Assembly: GCA_027345185.1 (NCBI GenBank)
Contig: DAHWIK010000044.1
Span: 3,396 to 67,395 of the forward strand
Direction: 5' to 3'
Source of the DNA: Candidatus Micrarchaeota archaeon
GTDB taxonomy: Archaea; Micrarchaeota; Micrarchaeia; Micrarchaeales; CABMGC01
DNA length: 64,000 bases
A program made the translations under genes and the position numbers. This document shows, one piece after another, positions 52,514-63,493 of the stretch. The notes below the pieces were generated by a model. It was not told where the DNA came from. It was given only the letters and a program-made list of their open reading frames with translations, and made no database searches. The stretch's first letter is position 1. The number at the start of each line of letters is the position of its first letter.

Positions 52514-53056
52514 TCAATTTAGATCGCGCTTGAAGTCCTTCTCAATCCTGCTTACCTTAGGCTTTATTACAAATGTGCAGTATCCTTGGTATGGATTCTT
52601 CTCGAAATATTTTTGGTGGTACTCTTCCGCAGGATAGAACTTGTCCAGCTTCACCAATTCGGTCACTATAGGTTGACCGTACTCCGGCTGCTCCTTCTTT
52701 ATGAACTCCTTTGCGATCTCCTTTTGGCTTTCCGTTGTGTATAGTATTATTGATCTGTACTGCGTCCCAAAGTCAGCACCCTGCCTGTTGAGTGAGGTAG
52801 GGTCGTGCATCTTGAAGAATATTTCTAATATCTTTTCTAGAGAAACTGATTTTGGGTCGTATTCCACCAGAGTTACCTCGGCGTGGCCCGTATCCCCGCT
52901 GCATACCTGCTCATATGTCGGATTCTTGGTATGCCCTCCAGCGTATCCTGGTGTTGTCTTGACAACGCCCTTAAGCATATCAAATATCGCCTGAGTGCAC
53001 CAGAAGCATCCTCCGCCCAGAAGTATCCTCTCATTTTTGCTTTGCATCCTAGTCAC
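52514..53056 (-). CDS. msrA: Peptide methionine (S)-sulfoxide reductase MsrA
   Basis: Active-site GGGCFWC, GYAGG, and HDPTSLNRQG. Confidence 0.9.
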   Translation of the reverse strand: MTRMQSKNERILLGGGCFWCTQAIFDMLKGVVKTTPGYAGGHTKNPTYEQVCSGDTGHAEVTLVEYDPKSVSLEKILEIFFKMHDPTSLNRQGADFGTQYRSIILYTTESQKEIAKEFIKKEQPEYGQPIVTELVKLDKFYPAEEYHQKYFEKNPYQGYCTFVIKPKVSRIEKDFKRDLN

Positions 53057-53417
53057 CCTTGTCTGGTATGAATTTTAAGGATATTGAATTTACGCAATGC
53101 CTCGTGTTCTTAGGCGTGAATCCCTCTCCTAGGAAGACATGCCCAAGGTGGGCGCCGCATCTTGCGCACTCTATCTCGGTGCGCATGCCGTCGATGTCTG
53201 GAACCCTCTTCACCGCACCATGAATCTCCTGGTCGAAGCTTGGCCATCCGCATCTTGCATCGAACTTGTCCCTTGATCTATATAATGGAGTCTCGCATCT
53301 CCTGCACACATATATGCCTGGCTTGAAGAAGTTGTCGTACTCCCCTGTGAAAGGCATCTCCGTGCCCCTGTGGACAATCACGCGCTCCTCTTCTGGAGTT
53401 AGCTTGTTCAGCTTCAT
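53049..53417 (-). CDS. msrB: Peptide methionine (R)-sulfoxide reductase MsrB
   Basis: Zinc CxxC pairs (CRRCETPL, CARCGAHLGHVF), CGWPSF, and a catalytic region ending RHCVNS. Start trimmed to MKLNKLTPEE because the longer ORF overlaps the upstream gene. Confidence 0.88.
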   Translation of the reverse strand: MKLNKLTPEEERVIVHRGTEMPFTGEYDNFFKPGIYVCRRCETPLYRSRDKFDARCGWPSFDQEIHGAVKRVPDIDGMRTEIECARCGAHLGHVFLGEGFTPKNTRHCVNSISLKFIPDKGD

Positions 53418-53434
53418 GGATTCAACATCTTGAT

Positions 53435-54154
53435 TTATGTCGGAACTGCGCCGAATACGCGGCCTATCAGGTATCCGGCAAACCCTGCAGTAAGGCCAAT
53501 CAGAAGCATCTCCATCCCGCTGCGCCACAGCGAACCGAGGGTAACTTTTGCCTCGTAATATCCCACTATGAAAAGCACAATTGCGCTGAGTATAACAGAT
53601 GCGATTGCAGCAGTTGCTATGTTACCTGAAAAGAATATGAACGGTATGAGTGGTATTACTGAACCAAGTGCGGTTGCAATAAGAACTGTCACAAAGCTTT
53701 TCGCTGGTGCTGACTTCTCGACAGGTGCAAGCTTCAGTTCGAATGACATCATGAACTCGAGCCATGCCTTCTCGTTGGAGCAGATCAAATCTGTCATTGA
53801 CTTTAGCTTCTTGCCCTTGTATCCCCACTCTACTAGAACATCGACGACCTCCTGCCTTTCCACTTTTGGCACTTCCCTCATCTCCCTTTTCTCAGTCTCT
53901 ACCTCCTTTAGATAGTGCTTAAACCTAGATTTAGTTGAGGTGTATGCTACTGCGGCCATAGAGATTGTTTCTGCGCCGAGGGCCGCAAGAGCCGCAACAA
54001 AGATAAGTCGTACGTCAGAAGTAGCGGCGGAAACTCCCAGAATGATTCCAAGCACATTCACCAGACCATCCTGCCCGCCAAGTATTACGTCAGAAAGCAT
54101 AGTGGGTCTGGAGTGCTGCTCGCTGTGCTCATTTCTAATATTCAGGGCAGTCAT
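53435..54154 (-). CDS. VIT1/CCC1 family iron/manganese transporter
   Basis: LSDVILGGQDGLVNVLGIILGVSAA, a central cytoplasmic helical E-rich domain, and five TM helices. Confidence 0.75.
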   Translation of the reverse strand: MTALNIRNEHSEQHSRPTMLSDVILGGQDGLVNVLGIILGVSAATSDVRLIFVAALAALGAETISMAAVAYTSTKSRFKHYLKEVETEKREMREVPKVERQEVVDVLVEWGYKGKKLKSMTDLICSNEKAWLEFMMSFELKLAPVEKSAPAKSFVTVLIATALGSVIPLIPFIFFSGNIATAAIASVILSAIVLFIVGYYEAKVTLGSLWRSGMEMLLIGLTAGFAGYLIGRVFGAVPT

Positions 54155-54958: not shown

Positions 54959-55105
54959 GACTACCTCCGCGTTCTATTGCATGTATGGCATGCGACTTTT
55001 TAAAGTTTGCTGTGCATTTCGTTTTTTTATCTCTTGTTATGCCCGAAATGGATTGAAGAGAAAGTAGTATATAGTAGAAAATACCTAATATGTATTAGTG
55101 GAAGC

Positions 55106-55684
55106 ATGGCTGAAACAGAGATTGATGGTGTTCAAGCAAAGGTAAACAAGCTCCTGGAGCTTGCAAAGTATGCTGCGTCAGTCAGTCCTGCGGATACGGA
55201 TCTGTATTCAAAGTCGCTTATTATTGATTTCAGGTATTATGATGGCTCGCCGCATTCCGGTCCTGTTAAATTATACCCAAAGGACATTTTGAAGATGACA
55301 GATTCTGAACTTAGGGAGGTGATTACGTCCCAGGGCAAGCCGGCTGCAATAAAATACCTGCAGAGCCTTAACCTGCCATTGGTCAACCCTGCATGGCCAT
55401 TGACCAAATCAAAAGAGAAGGGACACGTGATTAATACTTTCAAAAAAATATACAAGTATTTGGAACCTGACCCTAAAATTGAAAAAAAAGATGAAAAACC
55501 ACAAGAACCTAGTTCAAATTATGCCTACAGGTGTTCAAGGTGCGGAAAAGCGCCCCTTACAGGACCGGTGCTCTACTGCGACGGATGCAGCCAGTACATG
55601 TGCTATGAGTGCGGCATTCCGAGCGGATACATGGTCTGGAACTGCCCAAACTGCGCAATAGAGACCCAGCGTGTGGTGCTGTAG
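55106..55684 (+). CDS. Hypothetical protein with C-terminal double zinc-ribbon (4 x CxxC)
   Basis: CSRCGKAPLTGPVLYCDGCSQYMCYECGIPSGYMVWNCPNC. Start moved to the ATG at 55106; the ORF-track TTG extension is hydrophobic junk. Confidence 0.45.
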   Translation: MAETEIDGVQAKVNKLLELAKYAASVSPADTDLYSKSLIIDFRYYDGSPHSGPVKLYPKDILKMTDSELREVITSQGKPAAIKYLQSLNLPLVNPAWPLTKSKEKGHVINTFKKIYKYLEPDPKIEKKDEKPQEPSSNYAYRCSRCGKAPLTGPVLYCDGCSQYMCYECGIPSGYMVWNCPNCAIETQRVVL

Positions 55685-55750: not shown

Positions 55751-55951
55751 ATGTGCCAGGCTCCAGTAGGCAAGGTAATAGGACTTGATAGTGACAGCAT
55801 AACCGTAGAGTACAATGGGAAAGATAGGGTGCTAAAGAAGTCAAAGTTCCTTGACGCTAAGATAGGCGAGTACGTGCTGTTTTCGCTGGACATAGCGATA
55901 GACAAGGTGGACAAGGAAGAAGCTGAAATGATATTGAAGGGCATGAAATGA
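55751..55951 (+). CDS. hypC: Hydrogenase maturation chaperone HypC
   Basis: 66 aa. N-terminal MCQAPVGKVI (canonical MC[LI]xxPG[KQ]V), and GEYVLFSLDIAIDKVDKEEAE. Confidence 0.8.
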   Translation: MCQAPVGKVIGLDSDSITVEYNGKDRVLKKSKFLDAKIGEYVLFSLDIAIDKVDKEEAEMILKGMK

Positions 55952-56460
55952 ACGCTGAAGACAGGCTGCTATTTCTAAGATATGCGCTCCCGTGCGCTGG
56001 CACTCTTGTAAGAAGAGGCAAGGTCTCGCAAGACTATGTAAACAGTCTGATAAGGCTGGTCTCTGAAGACAAGTTGCCCCCTGAAGGAACGGAAAAGATG
56101 TTTATAGTGGCTAGCACCATGTGCAGCAAGATAGCCAATAGGCTGGGAAAGGCTGAGATAGATCAAGACGTAATAAGGACTTATTTCCTTTTTGAGCACG
56201 GTGAAGTTGTGGATGATAGGTTTGCACTCATGAAGGACTTTAATCCTGTTGACTGCAAGACATATCCGGGCAAAGTGATAGACGTGGAGGCCACTTCCGC
56301 AGTTGTAGAAACAAATCTGGGAAGCAAGGCATACAGTATAATTTTTGCAAAAGGAGTGAAGCCTGGAAACAGTGTCGTTGTGCATTATGATTACATAATA
56401 GAAAAGATAAGCGAGGATGCAGTCAAAAGGATGAACGTACTAGGGCAGGGTAAGCAATGA
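55948..56460 (+). CDS. HypC-like domain protein with about 100-aa N-terminal extension
   Basis: Residues about 102-165, DCKTYPGKVIDVEATSAVVETNLGSKAY...GNSVVVHYDYIIEKISEDA, reproduce the HypC pattern including the Cys-x3-PGKV box. That Cys is residue 103 rather than residue 2. ATGA overlap with hypC. Confidence 0.6.
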   Translation: MNAEDRLLFLRYALPCAGTLVRRGKVSQDYVNSLIRLVSEDKLPPEGTEKMFIVASTMCSKIANRLGKAEIDQDVIRTYFLFEHGEVVDDRFALMKDFNPVDCKTYPGKVIDVEATSAVVETNLGSKAYSIIFAKGVKPGNSVVVHYDYIIEKISEDAVKRMNVLGQGKQ

Positions 56461-57368
56461 ATAGGGAGAAAAAGGGGATAATCCTTGCTATACTGGCTGC
56501 AATTGTCAGTGGTATCTCGATTCCTGCAAACAAGTTCTTCATTGTAAACTTGGACCCGTCAGTCTTTACCGCTGTCCGATCAGTAATAATAGGGATTGGC
56601 TTCCTGGCCATATCCGCATATCCTGCAGTTAAGGAGCATAAGCCGTTCAGTAAGGCGCCTTGGAAGTACCTTATAGCCATAGCCGTGATTGGAGGTGCAG
56701 CTGCATTCTGGCTATACTTCACAGGCCTGCAGTTGACAACTGCCGGAAGGGCTGCAGTCCTCTACCACACCCTTCTTTCTGGATTCACTGTTATTCTCGC
56801 CTTCGTGTTTTTGCGCGAAAAGATATCAAGGAAGATGGTTTACGCTATCATCGCTATGCTTGTTGGAACCCTGATCCTATACATTTCACAGGTCCCGCAG
56901 TCACAGCTGTGGGCCAACCCTAACCTAGGAGATTTGATGATAATATCCGCATCGATCCTCTGGTCGATTGAATACGTGATTTCCAGGAAGGTGATGAAGA
57001 TGGGTGAGACGAATTTCGTCGTTTCATTCGCCAGGATGTTCTTCGGAGGACTTATACTGTTTGGCATTGTGATATTGTCGGGTGATTTGGGAGCGCTGTT
57101 CGTCCTGACAATACAGCAATGGATAAACATATTGATATCCACGGTATTGCTGTTTGCAGACGTCCTGTTCACGTACTGGAGCATACGGTACATAAACGTC
57201 TCAAAAGTCGCCACGCTGCTGCTTCTGGCTCCGATTATATCGCTGGTCGGAGGAGCATTGCTACTCGGTGAACCGACTCCGCTGCTGCAGTTGGTAGGGT
57301 CGGCTATAATGCTTGCCAGTGCATATTTTGTCATAGGTGTTAGGAGTGAATCGCAGAAAAAGACATAG
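56457..57368 (+). CDS. EamA/DMT-superfamily permease
   Basis: 303 aa with 10 TM helices arranged as two EamA repeats. ATGA overlap with the upstream gene, and an overlapping or abutting start of the downstream protease gene. Confidence 0.75.
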   Translation: MNREKKGIILAILAAIVSGISIPANKFFIVNLDPSVFTAVRSVIIGIGFLAISAYPAVKEHKPFSKAPWKYLIAIAVIGGAAAFWLYFTGLQLTTAGRAAVLYHTLLSGFTVILAFVFLREKISRKMVYAIIAMLVGTLILYISQVPQSQLWANPNLGDLMIISASILWSIEYVISRKVMKMGETNFVVSFARMFFGGLILFGIVILSGDLGALFVLTIQQWINILISTVLLFADVLFTYWSIRYINVSKVATLLLLAPIISLVGGALLLGEPTPLLQLVGSAIMLASAYFVIGVRSESQKKT

Positions 57369-57744
57369 GATATTGGTGTTTGGCAACCCGATGGTCAGTA
57401 GAGACAGCCTGCCTCTAAGGATAATTACCAGACTTGCCGAGAGACTGCCTGATTTCGATTTCATAGAGTTCGATCCTAATGAGAATCTGGAGAAGGAGGG
57501 CAGGGAACTTAACATAATAGATACTGTTGAAGGTGCAAAAGAGGTAGTGCTAATAACTGACATTGACAGAATACAGACGCAAAAGGTATACTCTATGCAC
57601 GATTTCGATCTTGGCCACAGTCTGAAGATCCTGGATAAGCTTGGCTATATAGACAGTGTCAGGATATTCGGTGTCCCGATGAAGATCAGTCAAAAAGATG
57701 CACTTGACCAGCTTGTTGCACTGATCAGCGCCACTTTACCTTGA
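57337..57744 (+). CDS. Hydrogenase maturation endopeptidase (HycI/HybD family)
   Basis: ILVFGNPMVSRDSLPLRI (canonical vlGiGN....DDg.G), a later D and a H (SMHDFDLGH). Start uncertain: GTG 57337/57346 or TTG 57373. Confidence 0.65.
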   Translation: MLGVNRRKRHRILVFGNPMVSRDSLPLRIITRLAERLPDFDFIEFDPNENLEKEGRELNIIDTVEGAKEVVLITDIDRIQTQKVYSMHDFDLGHSLKILDKLGYIDSVRIFGVPMKISQKDALDQLVALISATLP

Positions 57745-59041
57745 GGAAATGGCTTGCGCAGCTCATGCACGGGTCATAAGCCCTTATTAGTTTCTCTATC
57801 TCGAACTCTATCTGGCTCTTTGGTTTATCCATATTGGCATTTACAAGCTCCAGAACACTCTTCTCCATGCATACCTGATTCTGCTGCGTAGGCACTATTA
57901 TGTTGCCGTATTTTACCTTGCCGTCATTGCCTATAGAAAGCATGTAGTATAGCGTGCCGCGCGGTGCCTCAATCATTCCTATTCCCTGACCTTCCTTTAT
58001 GACCACCGAATCGGAATGCTCTTCCTTGAAGTCGTTGGATTCGAGCAGCTCTATGGATGCATCTATGCAATGCAGGACCTCTATTGCCTGTGCAAGATTA
58101 TTATGGAATATGTTCTTTGATGGAAATGCCGATGTGTATTTTGACGCATCCGCTTTTGTCTCACCATGCAGATTGTCCTTGTTCAGGTTCATTCTTGAAA
58201 TTGCACCGACCATGAATTCCTGGCCTTCAAACTTGTAGCCCACAGCCTGCGAGTAGGGCATTATCACAGCATTGAGATAGTCCCAGTATCTGTCCTCAAG
58301 GATGCATGACCCGCGCGAGTCGATGATCTTGCCTTTCGAGAATGAATAGTCATCTGTAACCAGCGAAACGAAGTTTGTATCCCTTTCCAGGTTCAAACCG
58401 CACGAATAGAATATCTCCATGAACTCTATTGCATATCCCCTTACTGATTTCAATTCCTTGACCAGCTTGTCTACTTCGGCCTTGTCAGGAATATGAGAAA
58501 ATTTTCCTACCTCTGCAAACGTTGCGTGCACTGCCCTTCCCGCTATCACTTTTGACAGGTTATTTCCTGTGCTTTTTATTGCAAACGCCTTCCTTATCAT
58601 ATCGTCCTGGGATTTATCAAAGTCCAGTATTGAATCTTTCCCGAAAAGGTCTGGGAGGCAGAACAGGTACAGGTGCAGCGCGTGGTCCCTTATCATCATG
58701 CCATACAATGATAGCTTCCTGAGCATAAGGGTCTGGTCGGTCGGCTCGAAGCCTATTGCATTTTCAACAGCTTCTGAACAGCAGGTCAGGTGGGCTATGC
58801 TGCAAGTCCCGCAAATTCTTGAGGTCATCAGAGGCAGGGAGATTGCAGGTTTTCCGCGTATCGCCTGCGTATAAAACCTCTTGCTTTCTGTTATCTTCAG
58901 CTTTACATAGTCCACTTTTCCATTCTTGATTCGGATGTCAAGATTGCTATGTCCTTCAGTCTTGCTGATATTGTTTATACGGATATGGCCTCCGCCACCG
59001 GGTTCATATGCTGAATCTTCAAACCTATGCACTTGATACAC
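57725..59041 (-). CDS. [NiFe]-hydrogenase large subunit (group 3-like motifs)
   Basis: L1 box RICGTCSIAH and L2 box DPCMSCASH, followed by the short cleavable tail FLKVKWR. 438 aa. Confidence 0.88.
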   Translation of the reverse strand: MYQVHRFEDSAYEPGGGGHIRINNISKTEGHSNLDIRIKNGKVDYVKLKITESKRFYTQAIRGKPAISLPLMTSRICGTCSIAHLTCCSEAVENAIGFEPTDQTLMLRKLSLYGMMIRDHALHLYLFCLPDLFGKDSILDFDKSQDDMIRKAFAIKSTGNNLSKVIAGRAVHATFAEVGKFSHIPDKAEVDKLVKELKSVRGYAIEFMEIFYSCGLNLERDTNFVSLVTDDYSFSKGKIIDSRGSCILEDRYWDYLNAVIMPYSQAVGYKFEGQEFMVGAISRMNLNKDNLHGETKADASKYTSAFPSKNIFHNNLAQAIEVLHCIDASIELLESNDFKEEHSDSVVIKEGQGIGMIEAPRGTLYYMLSIGNDGKVKYGNIIVPTQQNQVCMEKSVLELVNANMDKPKSQIEFEIEKLIRAYDPCMSCASHFLKVKWR

Positions 59042-59525
59042 CGAATTCTTTAATATATTTGTTCAGGACAGCAAGGAATGCAGACTCGTCCATAGGGCAT
59101 CCCTGCACCTCGTCGTCCACTGGCACTATGTCCTTGACCGATCTTACGTTTGGAGTCTGCTTGAATCGTATTATAAGGAACTCTATCTCCTTCTTTAGTT
59201 CGTCGTTAAAGGTATTTCTTTGGGCTGCGGGCATGCCATTTATTGCACATGAACCTATCATGACCAGCTTCTTGGAGTTTTTCCTTATAGTGCGCAGCTT
59301 TTTGGCGTCCTGCTCCGTAGTTATGGCGCCCTCAACGAAGGCGACATCTATTCCGCTGAGCTTGTTTCTTTTCTTGAGCACCCGTGCATGCCTGATATCA
59401 ATCATGTCCTTCCACTTAAAGAAGTTCTCGTTCATCAGCTCTATCCAGACCATCGTGCTGTCCTCACAGCAGGTAAAGGAGAACCATCCGATCTTCAGCT
59501 TTTTGGATTTCATGGTGATACCCAT
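59025..59525 (-). CDS. [NiFe]-hydrogenase small subunit, minimal single-cluster form
   Basis: 166 aa of the NuoB/Oxidored_q6 type. It has exactly four Cys: FTCCEDS, GSCAINGMP and QGCPMDE. It overlaps the large-subunit start by 17 nt. Confidence 0.75.
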   Translation of the reverse strand: MGITMKSKKLKIGWFSFTCCEDSTMVWIELMNENFFKWKDMIDIRHARVLKKRNKLSGIDVAFVEGAITTEQDAKKLRTIRKNSKKLVMIGSCAINGMPAAQRNTFNDELKKEIEFLIIRFKQTPNVRSVKDIVPVDDEVQGCPMDESAFLAVLNKYIKEFGVSSA

Positions 59526-59683: not shown

Positions 59684-59914
59684 TTACTGATTCATAGTCA
59701 ACTGCCTTCATGTGCAAAGGTCTTGCACCATCTTCGGAGTCGTTGGCTTCCTGCACGTCCTGCAGTAGTTGGACTTTTTCAAGTCGACCATTTTTATTAC
59801 GGCTTTGGGATTAATATACGTTGCAGTGGTCTTGTATGCCTGGCCTGAAAGAGATGGTTTTTACTTCCACATCAAGAAACCCGGAAATTTTTGATCAGCG
59901 TTTATTTAGCAACA

Positions 59915-59924
59915 TTTTAAATTT
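59915..59924 (+). promoter_or_regulatory. Putative TATA box for a leaderless ChdC/heme operon transcript
   Basis: TTTTAAATTT is centred about 25 nt upstream of the ATG at 59944. Confidence 0.35.
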
Positions 59925-59943
59925 AGCGTTTGCTAATATTATC

Positions 59944-60585
59944 ATGGGATTTTTCATATCTAACGTCTTAGCATACAAGTTCAGACCCAGTTGGTGGGAA
60001 CTTGAAAAGGATAGAAGGAAAATGATACTGGATGAGCTTAGGGAGACGCTTAAAGGAGTGGGAGGGGGCGGCGGGAAGGTGCTTAAAGCCGAGATCTACT
60101 CGTCATTGAGGTACGACTGCAGCATAATCTTCTGGCTGCTCTTGAATAAACCGGAAGAGCTTCCGGTTGCAAGGGCGAAACTAGAGAAGATCCTTGGCAG
60201 GCACGCTTCGATAAAGCACGGCTTCCTCTCTGTATACGAGCAGAAGAAGGAGAAAGGCGACGAAAAACGCGAGTATTTCGTAGCGTACCCGATAAGCAAG
60301 GATCCGGAGTGGTACCTTCTTGATAAAGTCGAGCGCTCCGAGATAATGGCGGAGCACATAAAAATTGCGACAGAGAACCCGAATAACAAAGGGATAAATT
60401 CTTATACAACGATGTCATTTGGTATAGACGATAATGAATTCGTCGTCCTGTACGAGCTGAACTCGATTGAAGAGTGGGTGCTTGTCACGCAGAGCTTGAG
60501 GGAGGCAAAGGCAAGGAAGTGGATGACTAACGAGAAGCCCATACTGGTCGGGAGAAAGGACAATGTTGAGGCTTTTTTGGCATGA
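59944..60585 (+). CDS. Chlorite dismutase family protein, coproheme decarboxylase (ChdC/HemQ)-like
   Basis: ERSEIMAEHIKIA (proximal His region), TTMSFGIDDNEFVVLYELNSIEEW and LREAKARKW match the Cld/HemQ C-terminal domain. The start was chosen at MGFFISNVLAYKF by analogy with HemQ N-termini. Confidence 0.7.
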   Translation: MGFFISNVLAYKFRPSWWELEKDRRKMILDELRETLKGVGGGGGKVLKAEIYSSLRYDCSIIFWLLLNKPEELPVARAKLEKILGRHASIKHGFLSVYEQKKEKGDEKREYFVAYPISKDPEWYLLDKVERSEIMAEHIKIATENPNNKGINSYTTMSFGIDDNEFVVLYELNSIEEWVLVTQSLREAKARKWMTNEKPILVGRKDNVEAFLA

Positions 60586-60598
60586 TCATGGTGGTAAA

Positions 60599-60889
60599 AT
60601 GATAAACGTAGGGATGTATTACAATGTAAAGCAGGGGCATGAAGCCGAGTTTGAGGGGACATTCGCCGGAGTGGTGGAGAAACTGAAAGGCGCTGGAGTA
60701 GGAATAAAGGACGCTAAGCTGTACAGGGAGATAGGAAAGAGCGAGTACATGATATACACAGAATGGGAGAGCCTTGAAGCCTTCAAGGGATTCATACAGA
60801 GCAGGGCATTCGGTGAGACCGTTGCCAATGGAAAGTCCATTATAGAGGGCAGGCCGAGGCACAAGGTATTCGCAGAGATGGATGAGTAG
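60599..60889 (+). CDS. Antibiotic-biosynthesis-monooxygenase (ABM/Dabb) domain protein
   Basis: 96 aa. INVGMYYNVKQGHEAEFE...YMIYTEWESLEAFKGF is the typical ABM ferredoxin-like pattern. A GGTGG sequence lies upstream of the ATG at 60599. Confidence 0.65.
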   Translation: MINVGMYYNVKQGHEAEFEGTFAGVVEKLKGAGVGIKDAKLYREIGKSEYMIYTEWESLEAFKGFIQSRAFGETVANGKSIIEGRPRHKVFAEMDE

Positions 60890-60903
60890 TTTAGGCTGGT
60901 GCA

Positions 60904-61785
60904 ATGAAGGGAGTGTTGCTGATGGCATATGGAGCTCCGAATTCCATAGAAGGGATAAAGGACTATTATACGGATATAAGGGGAGGAGTAGCGCCATCAG
61001 TCGAACACATTGGTGATCTTGTCAAGAGGTACGAGGCCATAGGAGGTGTGTCGCCATTATACAAGATAACTGTAGACCAGGCAGAAGGCCTGCAGAAGGC
61101 CCTTGGTTCGCGTTCGGTGGTCTATTTTGGCATGAAGCATTCACGGCCTTTTATAAAGGATGCTGTTGGAAAAAGCGCGGATGAAGGCGTAGATGAGCTT
61201 CTTTGCATAGCAATAGCTCCGCATTACTCCATAACAGGAACAGGATCTTACATAAGCAGGGTAAAGGATGCAAACACGGCGTTGGGCAACAGAATCCGCA
61301 CAGTGTTTGTAAATTCATGGCACCTTAACAGAAACCTGATAGAATTCTGGAGCAGAAGCATACTCAAGGCTTCTGTAGGGATGAAGAAGCCGTTCATCGT
61401 ATTTTCAGCGCACAGCCTGCCTGAGAAAGCTGAAAGCACAGGCCCCTATAAGGGCCAGCTTCTGGAAACTTCTGCAGCGGTTGCAGAAAAAGCAGGGATA
61501 ACGGACTGGGGGCTTGCATTCCAGAGCCAGAGCAGCAGGGGAGAAAAATGGTACGGACCCACCATACCTGAACTTATAGAGGCCAATATGGAGGAAGACA
61601 GATCGTTTGTCATCGCACCGATAGGATTCGTTTCTGACAACCTTGAGATACTTTATGACATAGACATTGTCTGCAGAAGATGGGCAGAGGATAAAAAGAT
61701 AGTGATGAATCGTGCGGATATGCCGAATAACTCTGCGCTGCTCATAGCGGCGCTTGACGATATTGCAAAGGATAATGGATTATGA
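60904..61785 (+). CDS. hemH: Ferrochelatase (short soluble type; HemH/CpfC)
   Basis: GVLLMAYGAPNS, SPLYKIT and FSAHSLPEK, with the C-terminal E/H acidic region absent or short. 293 aa. Confidence 0.85.
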   Translation: MKGVLLMAYGAPNSIEGIKDYYTDIRGGVAPSVEHIGDLVKRYEAIGGVSPLYKITVDQAEGLQKALGSRSVVYFGMKHSRPFIKDAVGKSADEGVDELLCIAIAPHYSITGTGSYISRVKDANTALGNRIRTVFVNSWHLNRNLIEFWSRSILKASVGMKKPFIVFSAHSLPEKAESTGPYKGQLLETSAAVAEKAGITDWGLAFQSQSSRGEKWYGPTIPELIEANMEEDRSFVIAPIGFVSDNLEILYDIDIVCRRWAEDKKIVMNRADMPNNSALLIAALDDIAKDNGL

Positions 61786-61819
61786 GCTGGCTTGCACAAG
61801 ACGTATTAAGTTGGCATTT

Positions 61820-63493
61820 ATGGAAAAAGTAGTGATTGGAGCAAGGGGAAGCAGGCTGAGCATTGCGCAGACGCAGATAGTCGTTGACAGGATAAAGAGG
61901 TCCTTTCCCAAACTTGCAGTGGAAATCCGAGTCATAAAGACTTACGGAGACATGAAGAAGGGGATGAAGCTTGACAGCATGGAGCAGAAGGGTGTTTTCG
62001 TAAAGGACATAGACAGGCAGCTTGCCGATGGGCAGATAGACCTTGCAGTGCACAGCCTGAAGGACATACCCACAAAACTGCCCGATTCACTGAAGATAGG
62101 CGCAATAGTGGAGAGGTCTGATCCGAGGGACGTACTGATATCAAGGGATAACAGCAAGCTAAGGGACCTCAAGAGGAATGCCAAGATAGGGACGAGCAGC
62201 CTGAGGAGGATGGGGCAGCTGCTTGCGTTTAGAAAAGACCTGAAGGTTGTGGAGATGAGGGGCAATGTTGACAAAAGGGTAGCAAAGCTTGACAGCGGAG
62301 ATTACGACGCGATAGTGCTTGCCGCTGCAGGAATAAAAAGGCTAGGATTGGAGAAGAGAATATCCGAATATCTGCCATTTGGCGTGATGCTTCCTGCGCC
62401 GGGGCAGGGAGCCCTTGCAGTAGAGATCAGAAGCGGTGACAGGCGTGCCGAGGAGATAGCGCGCAGAATAGACGATGCAAAAGTAAGGGCTTCTGTTGAA
62501 GCCGAGAGGATAGCGCTTTCGCGGATTGGAGGTGGCTGCAACGCCCTTCTTGGGGTATTGGCTGGGGTCAGGGGCGACAAGCTGAATATGTCCGCTGCGA
62601 TAACCAGCAGGGACGGGAAAAGAAAACGCAGATACACTCAAAGGGGACTTCTCGGTTTTCCAGAGGAGGCGGGGTTGATGCTGGCCGAGAAGATACTGAT
62701 GAGCGATGTTGCTGATATTATAGGAGACAAAAGACCATATTCTCCGCTCAGTGGGAAGGTCGTACTGGTGACCAGGGAGGAGGCAGAGGGAGAAGGCATA
62801 TGCCAGATGCTTCTTGAACGAGGGGCCGTACCTGTATATTTTCCTACAATAAAGACCGTGGATATCGACAGCCGGGATTCCGGGAAGAAATTAGATAGGC
62901 TGAACAAGTATGACGTTGTGGTAATTACGAGCAGGCGCGGAGCGTCCAGGCTTCTTGGCCTGCTAAAATATAAAGGCATGAGGATGGGTCTGGCAGGCGC
63001 AAGGGTGGTTGCAATAGGAACTGAAACGAAAAGGTATCTCGAGGGCAGCGGAGTGCCGGTGGATTATGTGCCGGATGACTCATATTCCAGGGAGATAGTC
63101 TGCGGCCTGAAAGGGATAAAGGGAAGGAGGATCCTTGTAATAAATTCTGCAAGGGCAGGAAACGGACTGGTTGAGGGATTGGCCAGCAAGGGCGGAAAGG
63201 TAGACAGGATGACCCCGTACACGGTGACGAAGCCGGATACAAGCGGGCTCAGAAGGAAGGCGATATTGGGATATAAGTTCGACTTCGTGACCTTCGCAAG
63301 CCCGTCTGCAGTTGAAGGGTTGATTGCAATCCTTGGGGAGCGCAATGCAAAAAAGGTTCTCTCAAAGAGCAAGGTCGTATGCATAGGAGATACAACGTCA
63401 AAAAAATGCTCCGAAGAAGGAATAAGGGTTCATGCCGTATCGGAAGTGCATTCCCTTTCCGGGATTGTAGACTGCATGGAAAGATCAGGATGA
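61820..63493 (+). CDS. hemC: Fusion protein: hydroxymethylbilane synthase (HemC) + uroporphyrinogen-III synthase (HemD)
   Basis: The N-terminal ~300 aa carry IGARGSRLSIAQT, DLAVHSLKD, RGNVDKRV and the cofactor Cys in GGCNALLG. The C-terminal ~250 aa (GKVVLVTREEAEG...VVITSRRGA...FASPSAVEG) are HemD-like. Start set at the ATG at 61820. Confidence 0.8.
   Translation: MEKVVIGARGSRLSIAQTQIVVDRIKRSFPKLAVEIRVIKTYGDMKKGMKLDSMEQKGVFVKDIDRQLADGQIDLAVHSLKDIPTKLPDSLKIGAIVERSDPRDVLISRDNSKLRDLKRNAKIGTSSLRRMGQLLAFRKDLKVVEMRGNVDKRVAKLDSGDYDAIVLAAAGIKRLGLEKRISEYLPFGVMLPAPGQGALAVEIRSGDRRAEEIARRIDDAKVRASVEAERIALSRIGGGCNALLGVLAGVRGDKLNMSAAITSRDGKRKRRYTQRGLLGFPEEAGLMLAEKILMSDVADIIGDKRPYSPLSGKVVLVTREEAEGEGICQMLLERGAVPVYFPTIKTVDIDSRDSGKKLDRLNKYDVVVITSRRGASRLLGLLKYKGMRMGLAGARVVAIGTETKRYLEGSGVPVDYVPDDSYSREIVCGLKGIKGRRILVINSARAGNGLVEGLASKGGKVDRMTPYTVTKPDTSGLRRKAILGYKFDFVTFASPSAVEGLIAILGERNAKKVLSKSKVVCIGDTTSKKCSEEGIRVHAVSEVHSLSGIVDCMERSG

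Follow-up and report, generated by a model that had tools for sequence, protein, structure and literature searches.

The group 3b [NiFe]-hydrogenases, exemplified by the sulfhydrogenases SH-I and SH-II of P. furiosus, are cytosolic alpha-beta-gamma-delta complexes; they feature group-3-style L1 and L2 boxes and a short C-terminal tail, and their delta subunit, about 240-260 aa long, carries a proximal, a medial and a distal cluster. Copies found in Micrarchaeota have been published as 'group 3b', on the basis of HydDB, and read as NADPH-coupled (PMC8561730). A 3b-related enzyme, named 'hyd2', was reported from bacteria of the candidate phyla radiation (CPR) by Jaffe et al. (BMC Biol 2020, PMC7304191): it forms a long branch, has a truncated small subunit (mean 164 aa), a hypC gene nearby and, for some members, PF07992 flavoproteins in the vicinity, lacks the beta and gamma subunits, and was assigned a function defined as 'uncertain'. 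The present analysis concerns a locus of this architecture in an archaeon. It is contained in a stretch of 64 kb, referred to below as the window, from a Candidatus Micrarchaeota archaeon (assembly GCA_027345185.1, contig DAHWIK010000044.1, positions 3,396-67,395 of the forward strand), and is composed of the genes for a large, catalytic subunit (LSU) and a small subunit (SSU), with an accessory operon converging on them (Table 1). As judged from the encoded proteins, it is a complete cytosolic two-subunit [NiFe]-hydrogenase, which is probably active.

A two-subunit group 3 enzyme has also been obtained by engineering: the alpha-delta heterodimer of SH-I (PDB 9e1j) is active, has lost the use of NADPH and accepts electrons straight from pyruvate:ferredoxin oxidoreductase (POR) (Hopkins et al. 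2011, PMC3200332). The window locus resembles it in dispensing with a diaphorase; the heterodimer differs in being man-made and in having a delta subunit which keeps three clusters. Small subunits with a single proximal cluster, in a comparable size class (178-189 aa), are HoxY of group 3d (5xf9_C) and HydS of HydABCSL (7t2r_E), but electrons pass in these enzymes to FeS-rich HoxU/HoxF or HydABC modules encoded by the same operon, none of which is found at the window locus.

The six open reading frames (ORFs) of the locus were found where an earlier, sequence-only reading of the window had placed them. That reading had described the LSU as carrying both Ni-binding boxes and a 7-residue tail, in the style of group 3, a description which is borne out by the position of the motifs. 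The N-terminal box, RICGTCSIAH, of the RxCGxCxxxH type, spans residues 75-84, and the C-terminal one, DPCMSCASH, residues 423-431, followed by the presumably cleavable tail FLKVKWR; the EGH (29-31) and PRG (360-362) motifs are also kept. The four cysteines which ligate Ni and Fe are present, as are the catalytic Glu/Arg motifs. The Pfam model NiFeSe_Hases matches the protein with 93.5 bits, for a cut-off of 25.8. Both subunits find their best matches among the group 3b sulfhydrogenases (NCBIfam ShyA/HydA and HydD/ShyD; PDB 9nez, 9e15 and 5yxy). For the LSU, the best NCBIfam models are ShyA (265.7 bits) and HydA (248.3 bits), with scores which are about one third of the group 3b equivalog cut-offs (700 and 880, respectively), and the nearest solved chain is the alpha subunit of P. 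furiosus SH-I (223 bits, 34% identity on the trimmed alignment); HoxH is a weaker match, at 126 bits. Homologues of the LSU number thousands: the best 120 are 58-75% identical to it, and those with a name belong to Micrarchaeota and Aenigmatarchaeota.

The small subunit had been indicated by the same reading as the only structural partner, with a single cluster, and this also holds. The protein matches Pfam Oxidored_q6 with 65.4 bits and contains four cysteines in all: C19 and C20 within TCCED, C93 within GSCAING and C143 within GCP. Its alignment with the delta subunit of P. furiosus, which has 261 aa, is limited to residues 3-150 of the latter, and that with its best NCBIfam profile (HydD/ShyD) to positions 1-153 of 261; the protein ends about 23 residues past the fold of the proximal cluster. 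An AlphaFold2 (AF2) model, obtained with pLDDT 93 and pTM 0.88, was compared by Foldseek with solved structures; the top matches were the N-terminal domain of SH-I delta, with query and target TM-scores (TMq and TMt) of 0.81 and 0.53, and the single-cluster subunits HoxY (5xf9_C) and HydS (7t2r_E), with TMq 0.81 and TMt 0.74. On the evidence of alignment and predicted structure, the SSU is devoid of the domain of about 100 residues which holds the medial and distal clusters, and has room for the proximal [4Fe-4S] cluster alone. This sets it apart from the group 3b delta subunit, together with the size, 162 aa against 261 aa, and with the lack of any beta or gamma subunit.

SSU homologues are uniformly short, 160-165 aa in one comparison and 154-165 aa in a wider one. 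The first ligand motif contains a tandem CC, in place of the CxxC of P. furiosus delta; a tandem CC is also found in NuoB. The region corresponding to residues 18-24 takes two forms in the family (loci L008-L087, by our numbering of related loci), either F[TS]CCED, sometimes CSED, or FT[C/G/A/S]DEGC, and several members have thus three cysteines available for the proximal cluster, which suggests a non-cysteine fourth ligand or another type of cluster in these proteins.

The distribution of the architecture was evaluated by scanning genomes, one for each species, and metagenomes. ORFs were called and clustered in the 80 best genome loci and in the window, for a total of 81 genome loci; 66 further loci from metagenomes were annotated by BLAST comparison against the gene families defined in the genome loci, to give 147 related loci. 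Relatives were found in at least 545 species-level genomes, from Micrarchaeota, Aenigmatarchaeota, Woesearchaeota, Iainarchaeia (Iainarchaeum), Nanoarchaeia, Nitrososphaerales (Nitrososphaera and other Nitrososphaeraceae) and CPR bacteria. All 81 genome loci and all 66 metagenome loci contain the LSU, and the short SSU is encoded in nearly all of the former and in 59 of the latter. In none of the 147 does a sulfhydrogenase beta or gamma gene adjoin the pair. Since the same architecture holds across the 147 related loci, the two-subunit composition is a conserved trait of the family, and not a gap of assembly or annotation.

In a neighbour-joining (NJ) tree, the 81 loci form one block together with two representative sequences, apart from P. 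furiosus SH-I and about 100 other representatives, on a short stem (0.026). The L1 box contains CGTC in all 83 members of the block, and the tetrapeptide is rare outside it. CPR members, from Falkowbacteria, Moraniibacteriota and Saccharibacteria, fall within the clade of the window; six CPR large subunits (L051, L055, L058, L070, L073 and L080), paired with SSUs of 154-160 aa, are placed in this clade at 52-55% identity.

The clade of the window appears to be the closest relative of the group 3b sulfhydrogenases and to correspond, by architecture and by the CPR genomes it includes, to hyd2. As in hyd2, an SSU of 162-166 aa is encoded next to the LSU, two HupF_HypC proteins are nearby, and beta and gamma are absent; CPR genomes of the kind analysed in that work (Falkowbacteria RIFOXYD12_FULL_34_57 and CG02_land) are located in the same LSU clade. 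Unlike hyd2, which was described for CPR bacteria only, the window copy is archaeal, Micrarchaeota-like, and no mention was found in the hyd2 paper (PMC7304191) of SSU-flavoprotein fusions, of the protease or of the EamA/DUF6390 module discussed below. The suggestion, contained in the sequence-only reading, that the locus may represent an undescribed minimal type of hydrogenase must therefore be abandoned, the same architecture being already published, with CPR members inside the clade. The LSU does fall within a known two-gene subgroup, a case foreseen there in combination with a known partner, but the literature records no established partner. The family is already noticed yet uncharacterised, and what the window adds is a member from Micrarchaeota, well preserved and accompanied by its accessory operon.

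Twenty of the related loci belong to Nitrososphaera and Nitrososphaeraceae metagenome-assembled genomes, from soil ammonia oxidisers, which encode the two-subunit enzyme; on the flanks of such loci are hypE, hypD, hypC, hypF and genes of class II aldolase-like type. In a recent review of ammonia-oxidising archaea, the hydrogenases listed are limited to 3b enzymes of four subunits, in Nitrosocaldus, and to Ehr complexes, and the two-subunit enzyme of Nitrososphaera is not mentioned.

The similarity of the LSU, closest to the alpha subunits of sulfhydrogenases, and the group 3b label given to Micrarchaeota copies in published work may suggest that a diaphorase encoded elsewhere, either an FNR-like FAD/NAD-binding protein or true beta and gamma subunits, completes a 3b-like H2:NAD(P)+ oxidoreductase. 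FNR-like proteins (FAD_binding_6 plus NAD_binding_1, about 230 aa) are in fact encoded within 6 kb in 10 of the 147 loci, immediately upstream of the SSU in two of them (L138 and L141). These proteins, however, have no FeS domain; a gamma subunit with such a domain was found in none of the 147 loci, and a beta-type poly-ferredoxin gene in none of the 81 genome loci. No FNR-like, beta or gamma gene is present in the window, or in the 24 loci most closely related to it (14 from genomes and 10 from metagenomes, with identity of 67% or more), and the domain missing from the SSU is the one which wires delta to beta. Coupling to NAD(P)H is for us an improbable explanation.

The sequence-only reading had also stated that no recognisable electron-transfer partner is encoded in cis, and for the window this was confirmed by several searches. 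No FeS or flavin partner gene adjoins the hydrogenase, and the window contains neither sulfhydrogenase beta or gamma subunits nor a diaphorase of the NuoF/NuoG type, a feature of group 3d. By tblastn, all members of 18 neighbour families (including thioredoxin reductase (TrxR)-like, ferredoxin, FNR-like, HypD, HypE, HypF, DUF6390, DsbA-like and NiCoT proteins) detected in the 64 kb only the genes of the locus itself, and queries for [FeFe]-HydA and NuoF-like proteins had no match. Regular-expression scans of the window for the motifs of ferredoxin, thioredoxin, glutaredoxin, rubredoxin and the Hyp proteins returned only spurious frames, the P-loop of SufC and a Zn-ribbon protein which is not conserved. 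The gene of the latter precedes hypC by 67 nt, in the same orientation, and its product is 192 aa long in public calls; its C-terminus contains four CxxC pairs (CSRC, CDGC, CYEC and CPNC), resembling two zinc ribbons, with no Pfam match. As a redox partner it was rejected, since it is not conserved at that position in any related locus.

Candidate partners were instead found in cis in the wider family, where the 147 loci include 19 with TrxR-like, 11 with ferredoxin, 10 with FNR-like and two with [FeFe]-HydA genes. The recurrent candidate is the TrxR-like flavoprotein, often accompanied by a small [4Fe-4S] ferredoxin. In seven genome loci the gene in the SSU position codes for a protein of 483-513 aa; in one of these (L030), residues 3-280 match Pfam Pyr_redox_2 and residues 350-486 Oxidored_q6, as expected for a fusion of the two proteins. 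About 29 clusters of full-length TrxR-like::SSU fusions, at 90% identity, are present in the public protein collection, along with many stand-alone TrxR-like homologues of 300-308 aa, and one fusion has an SSU domain which shares 56% identity with the window SSU. Linkage also takes the form of gene order: TrxR-SSU-LSU on a single strand in one locus (L057), TrxR-ferredoxin-protease in two (L050 and L137), TrxR-hypC in two more (L077 and L085), and HypC2-EamA-TrxR::SSU-LSU in L031. In the tree of the LSU, these associations occupy three separate places, which flank the subclade of the window on either side. When the literature was searched for fusions between a hydrogenase and a thioredoxin reductase, or for partners of Aenigmarchaeota hydrogenases, nothing relevant was retrieved, and no published account of the fusions or of the operon linkage was found.

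The flavoproteins keep the redox-active motif of thioredoxin reductases, CxxCDG being retained in 112 of 117 homologues; in those linked to hydrogenase, the HRRxxxR motif for the 2'-phosphate of NADPH is replaced by (I/V)(S/A)N(A/S)xxFxFS. Their nearest solved homologue is 5nii_A (162 bits), annotated only as 'thioredoxin reductase'. It is probably the D. vulgaris TRi: the PDB code is not in the text of the TRi paper, and the identification relies on the TQGK motif of the 5nii_A sequence, which is the signature of TRi according to Valette et al. (PMC5627308). In that work, TRi is a thioredoxin reductase independent of NAD(P)H, which has Trx1 as a substrate and a protective role under disulfide stress, whose physiological reductant is unknown, and which is described as confined to anaerobic bacteria, with no hydrogenase link proposed. 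The hydrogenase-linked flavoproteins resemble it in keeping the CxxC disulfide and in missing the HRR(D) motif for NADPH, and differ from it in having SNAxxF where TRi has TQ/NGK.

The recurrence of TrxR-like fusions and operons suggests that H2 oxidation feeds thiol/disulfide chemistry without NAD(P)H. In the proposed mechanism, oxidation of H2 would take place at the Ni-Fe site, with electrons leaving by way of the proximal cluster; since there are neither medial and distal clusters nor a diaphorase, a separately encoded soluble partner would dock on the SSU and exchange electrons directly with that cluster. The partner would be a flavoprotein of the TRi type, independent of NAD(P)H, able to reduce disulfides of the thioredoxin type. 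Thermodynamics favour this direction, thioredoxin being at about -270 mV and the H+/H2 couple at -414 mV. We tentatively take the transfer of electrons from H2 to a TRi-type flavoprotein, and from there to repair and reduction reactions which depend on thioredoxin and bypass NAD(P)H, to be the most likely function, while granting that it may well turn out otherwise. Because no partner is encoded in the window or near its 24 closest relatives, the acceptor in the genome of the window is only inferred from these more distant members, and would be encoded outside the 64 kb. For the electron acceptor, which the sequence-only reading had left unexplained, the fusions and operons supply candidates at the level of the family, none of them in the window.

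Several observations weigh against this proposal. The window has no TrxR-like, ferredoxin, FNR-like or [FeFe] gene, and none occurs within 10 kb on either side in any of the 24 closest relatives. In the family as a whole, a candidate partner is found in cis in only about one quarter of the loci, and is of several kinds; a canonical thioredoxin is adjacent in a single locus. The AF2 model of a TrxR::SSU fusion has pTM 0.56 and a disordered linker of about 40 residues (296-336), which leaves the flavin-to-cluster geometry undefined, and the sequence of the flavoprotein is compatible with its possible use of NADH. Finally, hypA, hypB, hypD, hypE and hypF, with which the enzyme would be matured, are all absent from the window.

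The last point, along with the absence of HypA- and HypB-like genes from all 81 genome loci and the presence, in some relatives, of an adjoining HxlR-type regulator, would also suit a non-catalytic remnant, or an H2 sensor in the manner of a regulatory hydrogenase, in an organism without hypA, B, D, E and F. Such an enzyme would hardly be expected to keep every metal ligand and the catalytic Glu/Arg motifs; strong purifying selection is evident from the 58-75% identity kept between phyla, and the C-terminal tail is retained along with a dedicated protease and two HypC-type proteins. Sensor hydrogenases are not known to have either such a tail or such a protease. Moreover, Nitrososphaera and CPR relatives have hypC, hypD, hypE and hypF beside the same enzyme, and a remnant or sensor seems very improbable.

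A stronger competitor, in fact the main one, is an enzyme coupled to ferredoxin, where the heterodimer would exchange electrons directly, either with a small ferredoxin or with oxidoreductases of the 2-oxoacid:ferredoxin type (OFOR). Its main role would be to vent excess reductant as H2 in hypoxic or fermentative conditions, and it could also work in reverse, to reduce ferredoxin. A single-cluster ferredoxin of about 75-83 aa (Pfam Fer4_13/Fer4_15) is encoded beside the protease gene, and read as co-transcribed with it, in 11 of the 147 loci; the engineered alpha-delta heterodimer, in dropping NADPH and taking electrons from POR (PMC3200332), sets a precedent, and DPANN and CPR organisms are mostly fermenters equipped with POR/OFOR (PMC8561730). 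About half of the ferredoxin-linked loci, however, also contain a TrxR-like gene (L031, L050, L085, L134 and L137), and ferredoxin may be an intermediate there; the direct fusions of SSU and flavoprotein point to a flavin as acceptor in the lineages which have them, the window has no ferredoxin gene, and the family is also present in Nitrososphaera, which is aerobic. Coupling to ferredoxin is on balance rather unlikely.

In two loci of CPR type, [FeFe]-HydA is encoded directly upstream of SSU-LSU, on the same strand (L051, 1303-6475, and L063, 6754-11275), and in the first of them a NuoF-like gene precedes HydA. The HydA-SSU-LSU arrangement recalls the hybrid [FeFe]/[NiFe] hydrogenases (groups F/G with 3f/3g; Greening et al. 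2024, PMC11216029), in which a group 3 single-cluster SSU module is likewise wired to a different redox enzyme; the published hybrids were reported only from archaeal classes and have HydB, HydC and HydD, whereas the window has no [FeFe] or NuoF-like gene. The family looks like a minimal H2 module which is wired to different redox partners. In a bolder reading, the module would be a free-standing 'H2 plug', whose single cluster directly feeds a thioredoxin reductase independent of NAD(P)H in an H2:thioredoxin oxidoreductase system, and the window enzyme would work likewise, with its partner encoded elsewhere in the genome. This reading is possible, though we would not count on it.

The accessory operon had been described by the sequence-only reading as a convergent set of overlapping genes for hypC, an extended hypC paralogue, an EamA permease and the maturation endopeptidase. 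The first three assignments and the overlaps were verified; the endopeptidase call was not supported to the same extent, its Pfam HycI match (16.2 bits, E 0.0095) being under the gathering score of 23. The operon is lineage-specific; in the subclade of the window, the conserved set includes SSU, LSU, protease, EamA, HypC2 and HypC. Features of the locus and of its surroundings are reported in Table 1.

Table 1. Genes of the hydrogenase locus and neighbouring features, in window coordinates
Feature	Position	Strand	Length	Remarks
MsrA (PMSR), MsrB (SelR) and VIT1 iron-transporter homologue	52514-54154	-		1.6-3.2 kb from the accessory operon
Zn-ribbon protein	55007-55684	+	225 aa	Upstream of hypC
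hypC	55751-55951	+	66 aa	Pfam HupF_HypC
HypC-domain paralogue (HypC2)	55948-56460	+	170 aa	N-terminal helical extension of about 100 aa; short DUF6390 relative
EamA/DMT-family permease	56457-57368	+	303 aa	Pfam EamA, two repeats
Putative C-terminal maturation endopeptidase, HybD/HycI-like	57337-57744	+	135 aa	GTG start; sub-threshold Pfam HycI
[NiFe]-hydrogenase large (catalytic) subunit, LSU	57725-59041	-	438 aa	GTG start; Pfam NiFeSe_Hases
Small subunit, SSU	59025-59525	-	166 aa (ORF)	Pfam Oxidored_q6; single proximal [4Fe-4S] site predicted
Haem-biosynthesis cluster (chlorite-dismutase-like, ABM, ferrochelatase, HemC-HemD)	59821-63493			Upstream of the SSU

The hypC product matches HupF_HypC with 41.4 bits (cut-off 28.5) and starts with MCQ, with a cysteine at position 2. 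HypC2 matches the same model with 33.6 bits, restricted to residues 103-162. The profile of its family detects T. kodakarensis HypC (2z1c, E 2.6e-12), with Cys103 aligned to Cys2 of HypC; this cysteine is internal, and the protein therefore fails the N-terminal-cysteine feature of HypC/HupF chaperones. Residues C16, Y79, H84, C103, H146 and E152 are invariant, the first three being located in the N-terminal domain of about 100 aa. Comparison with the DUF6390 alignment by hhalign gave a probability of 98% (E 2.9e-13). HypC2 is encoded in 27 of the 81 genome loci and in 28 of the 66 metagenome loci; DUF6390 was found in 10 of the former and in none of the latter.

The permease matches Pfam EamA with 135.2 bits. 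EamA genes are present in 35 of the 81 genome loci, 33 of which have them no more than 3 kb away from the hydrogenase, and in 20 of the 66 metagenome loci, and in nearly all of them the gene adjoins HypC2 or DUF6390. In the 55 of the 147 related loci concerned, HypC2 or DUF6390 is almost always paired with an EamA gene near the hydrogenase, and in L031 the pair is placed inside the structural operon. A role of EamA as a membrane anchor for redox functions was rejected, the protein being a DMT permease without cofactor motifs, and a role as a simple nickel importer is doubtful, NiCoT-like nickel permease genes co-occurring with it in two loci (L059 and L087).

The gene for the putative protease is present in 66 of the 81 genome loci and in 45 of the 66 metagenome loci, typically adjoining the LSU gene in convergent orientation. 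Its family profile has E. coli HybD (1cfz) as best match in the PDB, weak at E 0.35. Across 32 homologues no variation occurs at G16, N17, D23, D62, H88, D89 and D91, and D23, D62 and H88 align with the ligand regions of HybD, within the limits of the same weak match. The position of the gene and the 7-aa tail of the LSU fit a maturation endopeptidase acting on this subunit, a putative assignment which is the weakest of the six.

Within the accessory operon, ATGA overlaps are found at the hypC/HypC2 and HypC2/EamA junctions, and the protease gene overlaps the end of EamA by 32 nt; the permease gene is read as translationally coupled within the operon. The protease and LSU genes, convergent, overlap by 20 nt, and the end of the SSU gene overlaps the LSU start by 17 nt. 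Public gene calls differ in part from the ORFs reported in Table 1. The LSU is called as 435 aa; the SSU, on the same sequence (L001, 6184-6612), as 142 aa, with a start which is too late and causes the loss of the TCCED ligand motif; and the protease (L001, 7893-8246) as 117 aa, again starting too late, with loss of the invariant GN motif. Alignment of homologues favours the longer forms of both SSU and protease, and the N-termini of the homologues indicate that the true SSU start is probably M5, at 59513, for a protein of 162 aa. A scan of the window for sigma-70 promoters and terminators produced counts similar to the shuffled expectation, the sigma-70 model being not applicable to an archaeon.

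Other genes in the surroundings are involved in thiol or redox chemistry. In the window, methionine sulfoxide reductase genes, MsrA and MsrB, lie about 2-3 kb from the accessory operon, with a VIT1 homologue; VIT1 is also found beside the SSU in a Falkowbacteria locus (L070). In 5 of the 14 close genome relatives, and in 2 of the 10 closest metagenome loci, the region directly upstream of the SSU contains an HxlR regulator followed by nrdD and nrdG, for the anaerobic ribonucleotide reductase; the same position is occupied in the window by the haem-biosynthesis cluster. Neighbours of the Msr, Nrd and HxlR type are thioredoxin-dependent or redox-sensing, and they fit, as weak evidence, the model of H2-driven thiol reduction.

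Enzymes of this family are routinely filed as NADP-coupled 'group 3b' hydrogenases in surveys of DPANN, CPR and some Nitrososphaerales, yet they are without the parts needed for coupling to NAD(P). Metabolic reconstructions in which such an enzyme is assigned an NADPH-linked production of H2 are therefore probably wrong. For the window itself the gain is smaller, and consists of one clean Micrarchaeota example, while for the family the SSU/flavoprotein fusions provide a concrete and testable hypothesis on the redox partner. If this hypothesis is true, H2 would acquire a new physiological role, in the reduction of thiols independently of NAD(P)H, and an electron donor could be named for the orphan reductases of the TRi type; ultra-small archaea, CPR bacteria and soil ammonia oxidisers would be able to run Msr, peroxiredoxin and class III ribonucleotide reductase on trace H2, with no need of NAD(P)H.

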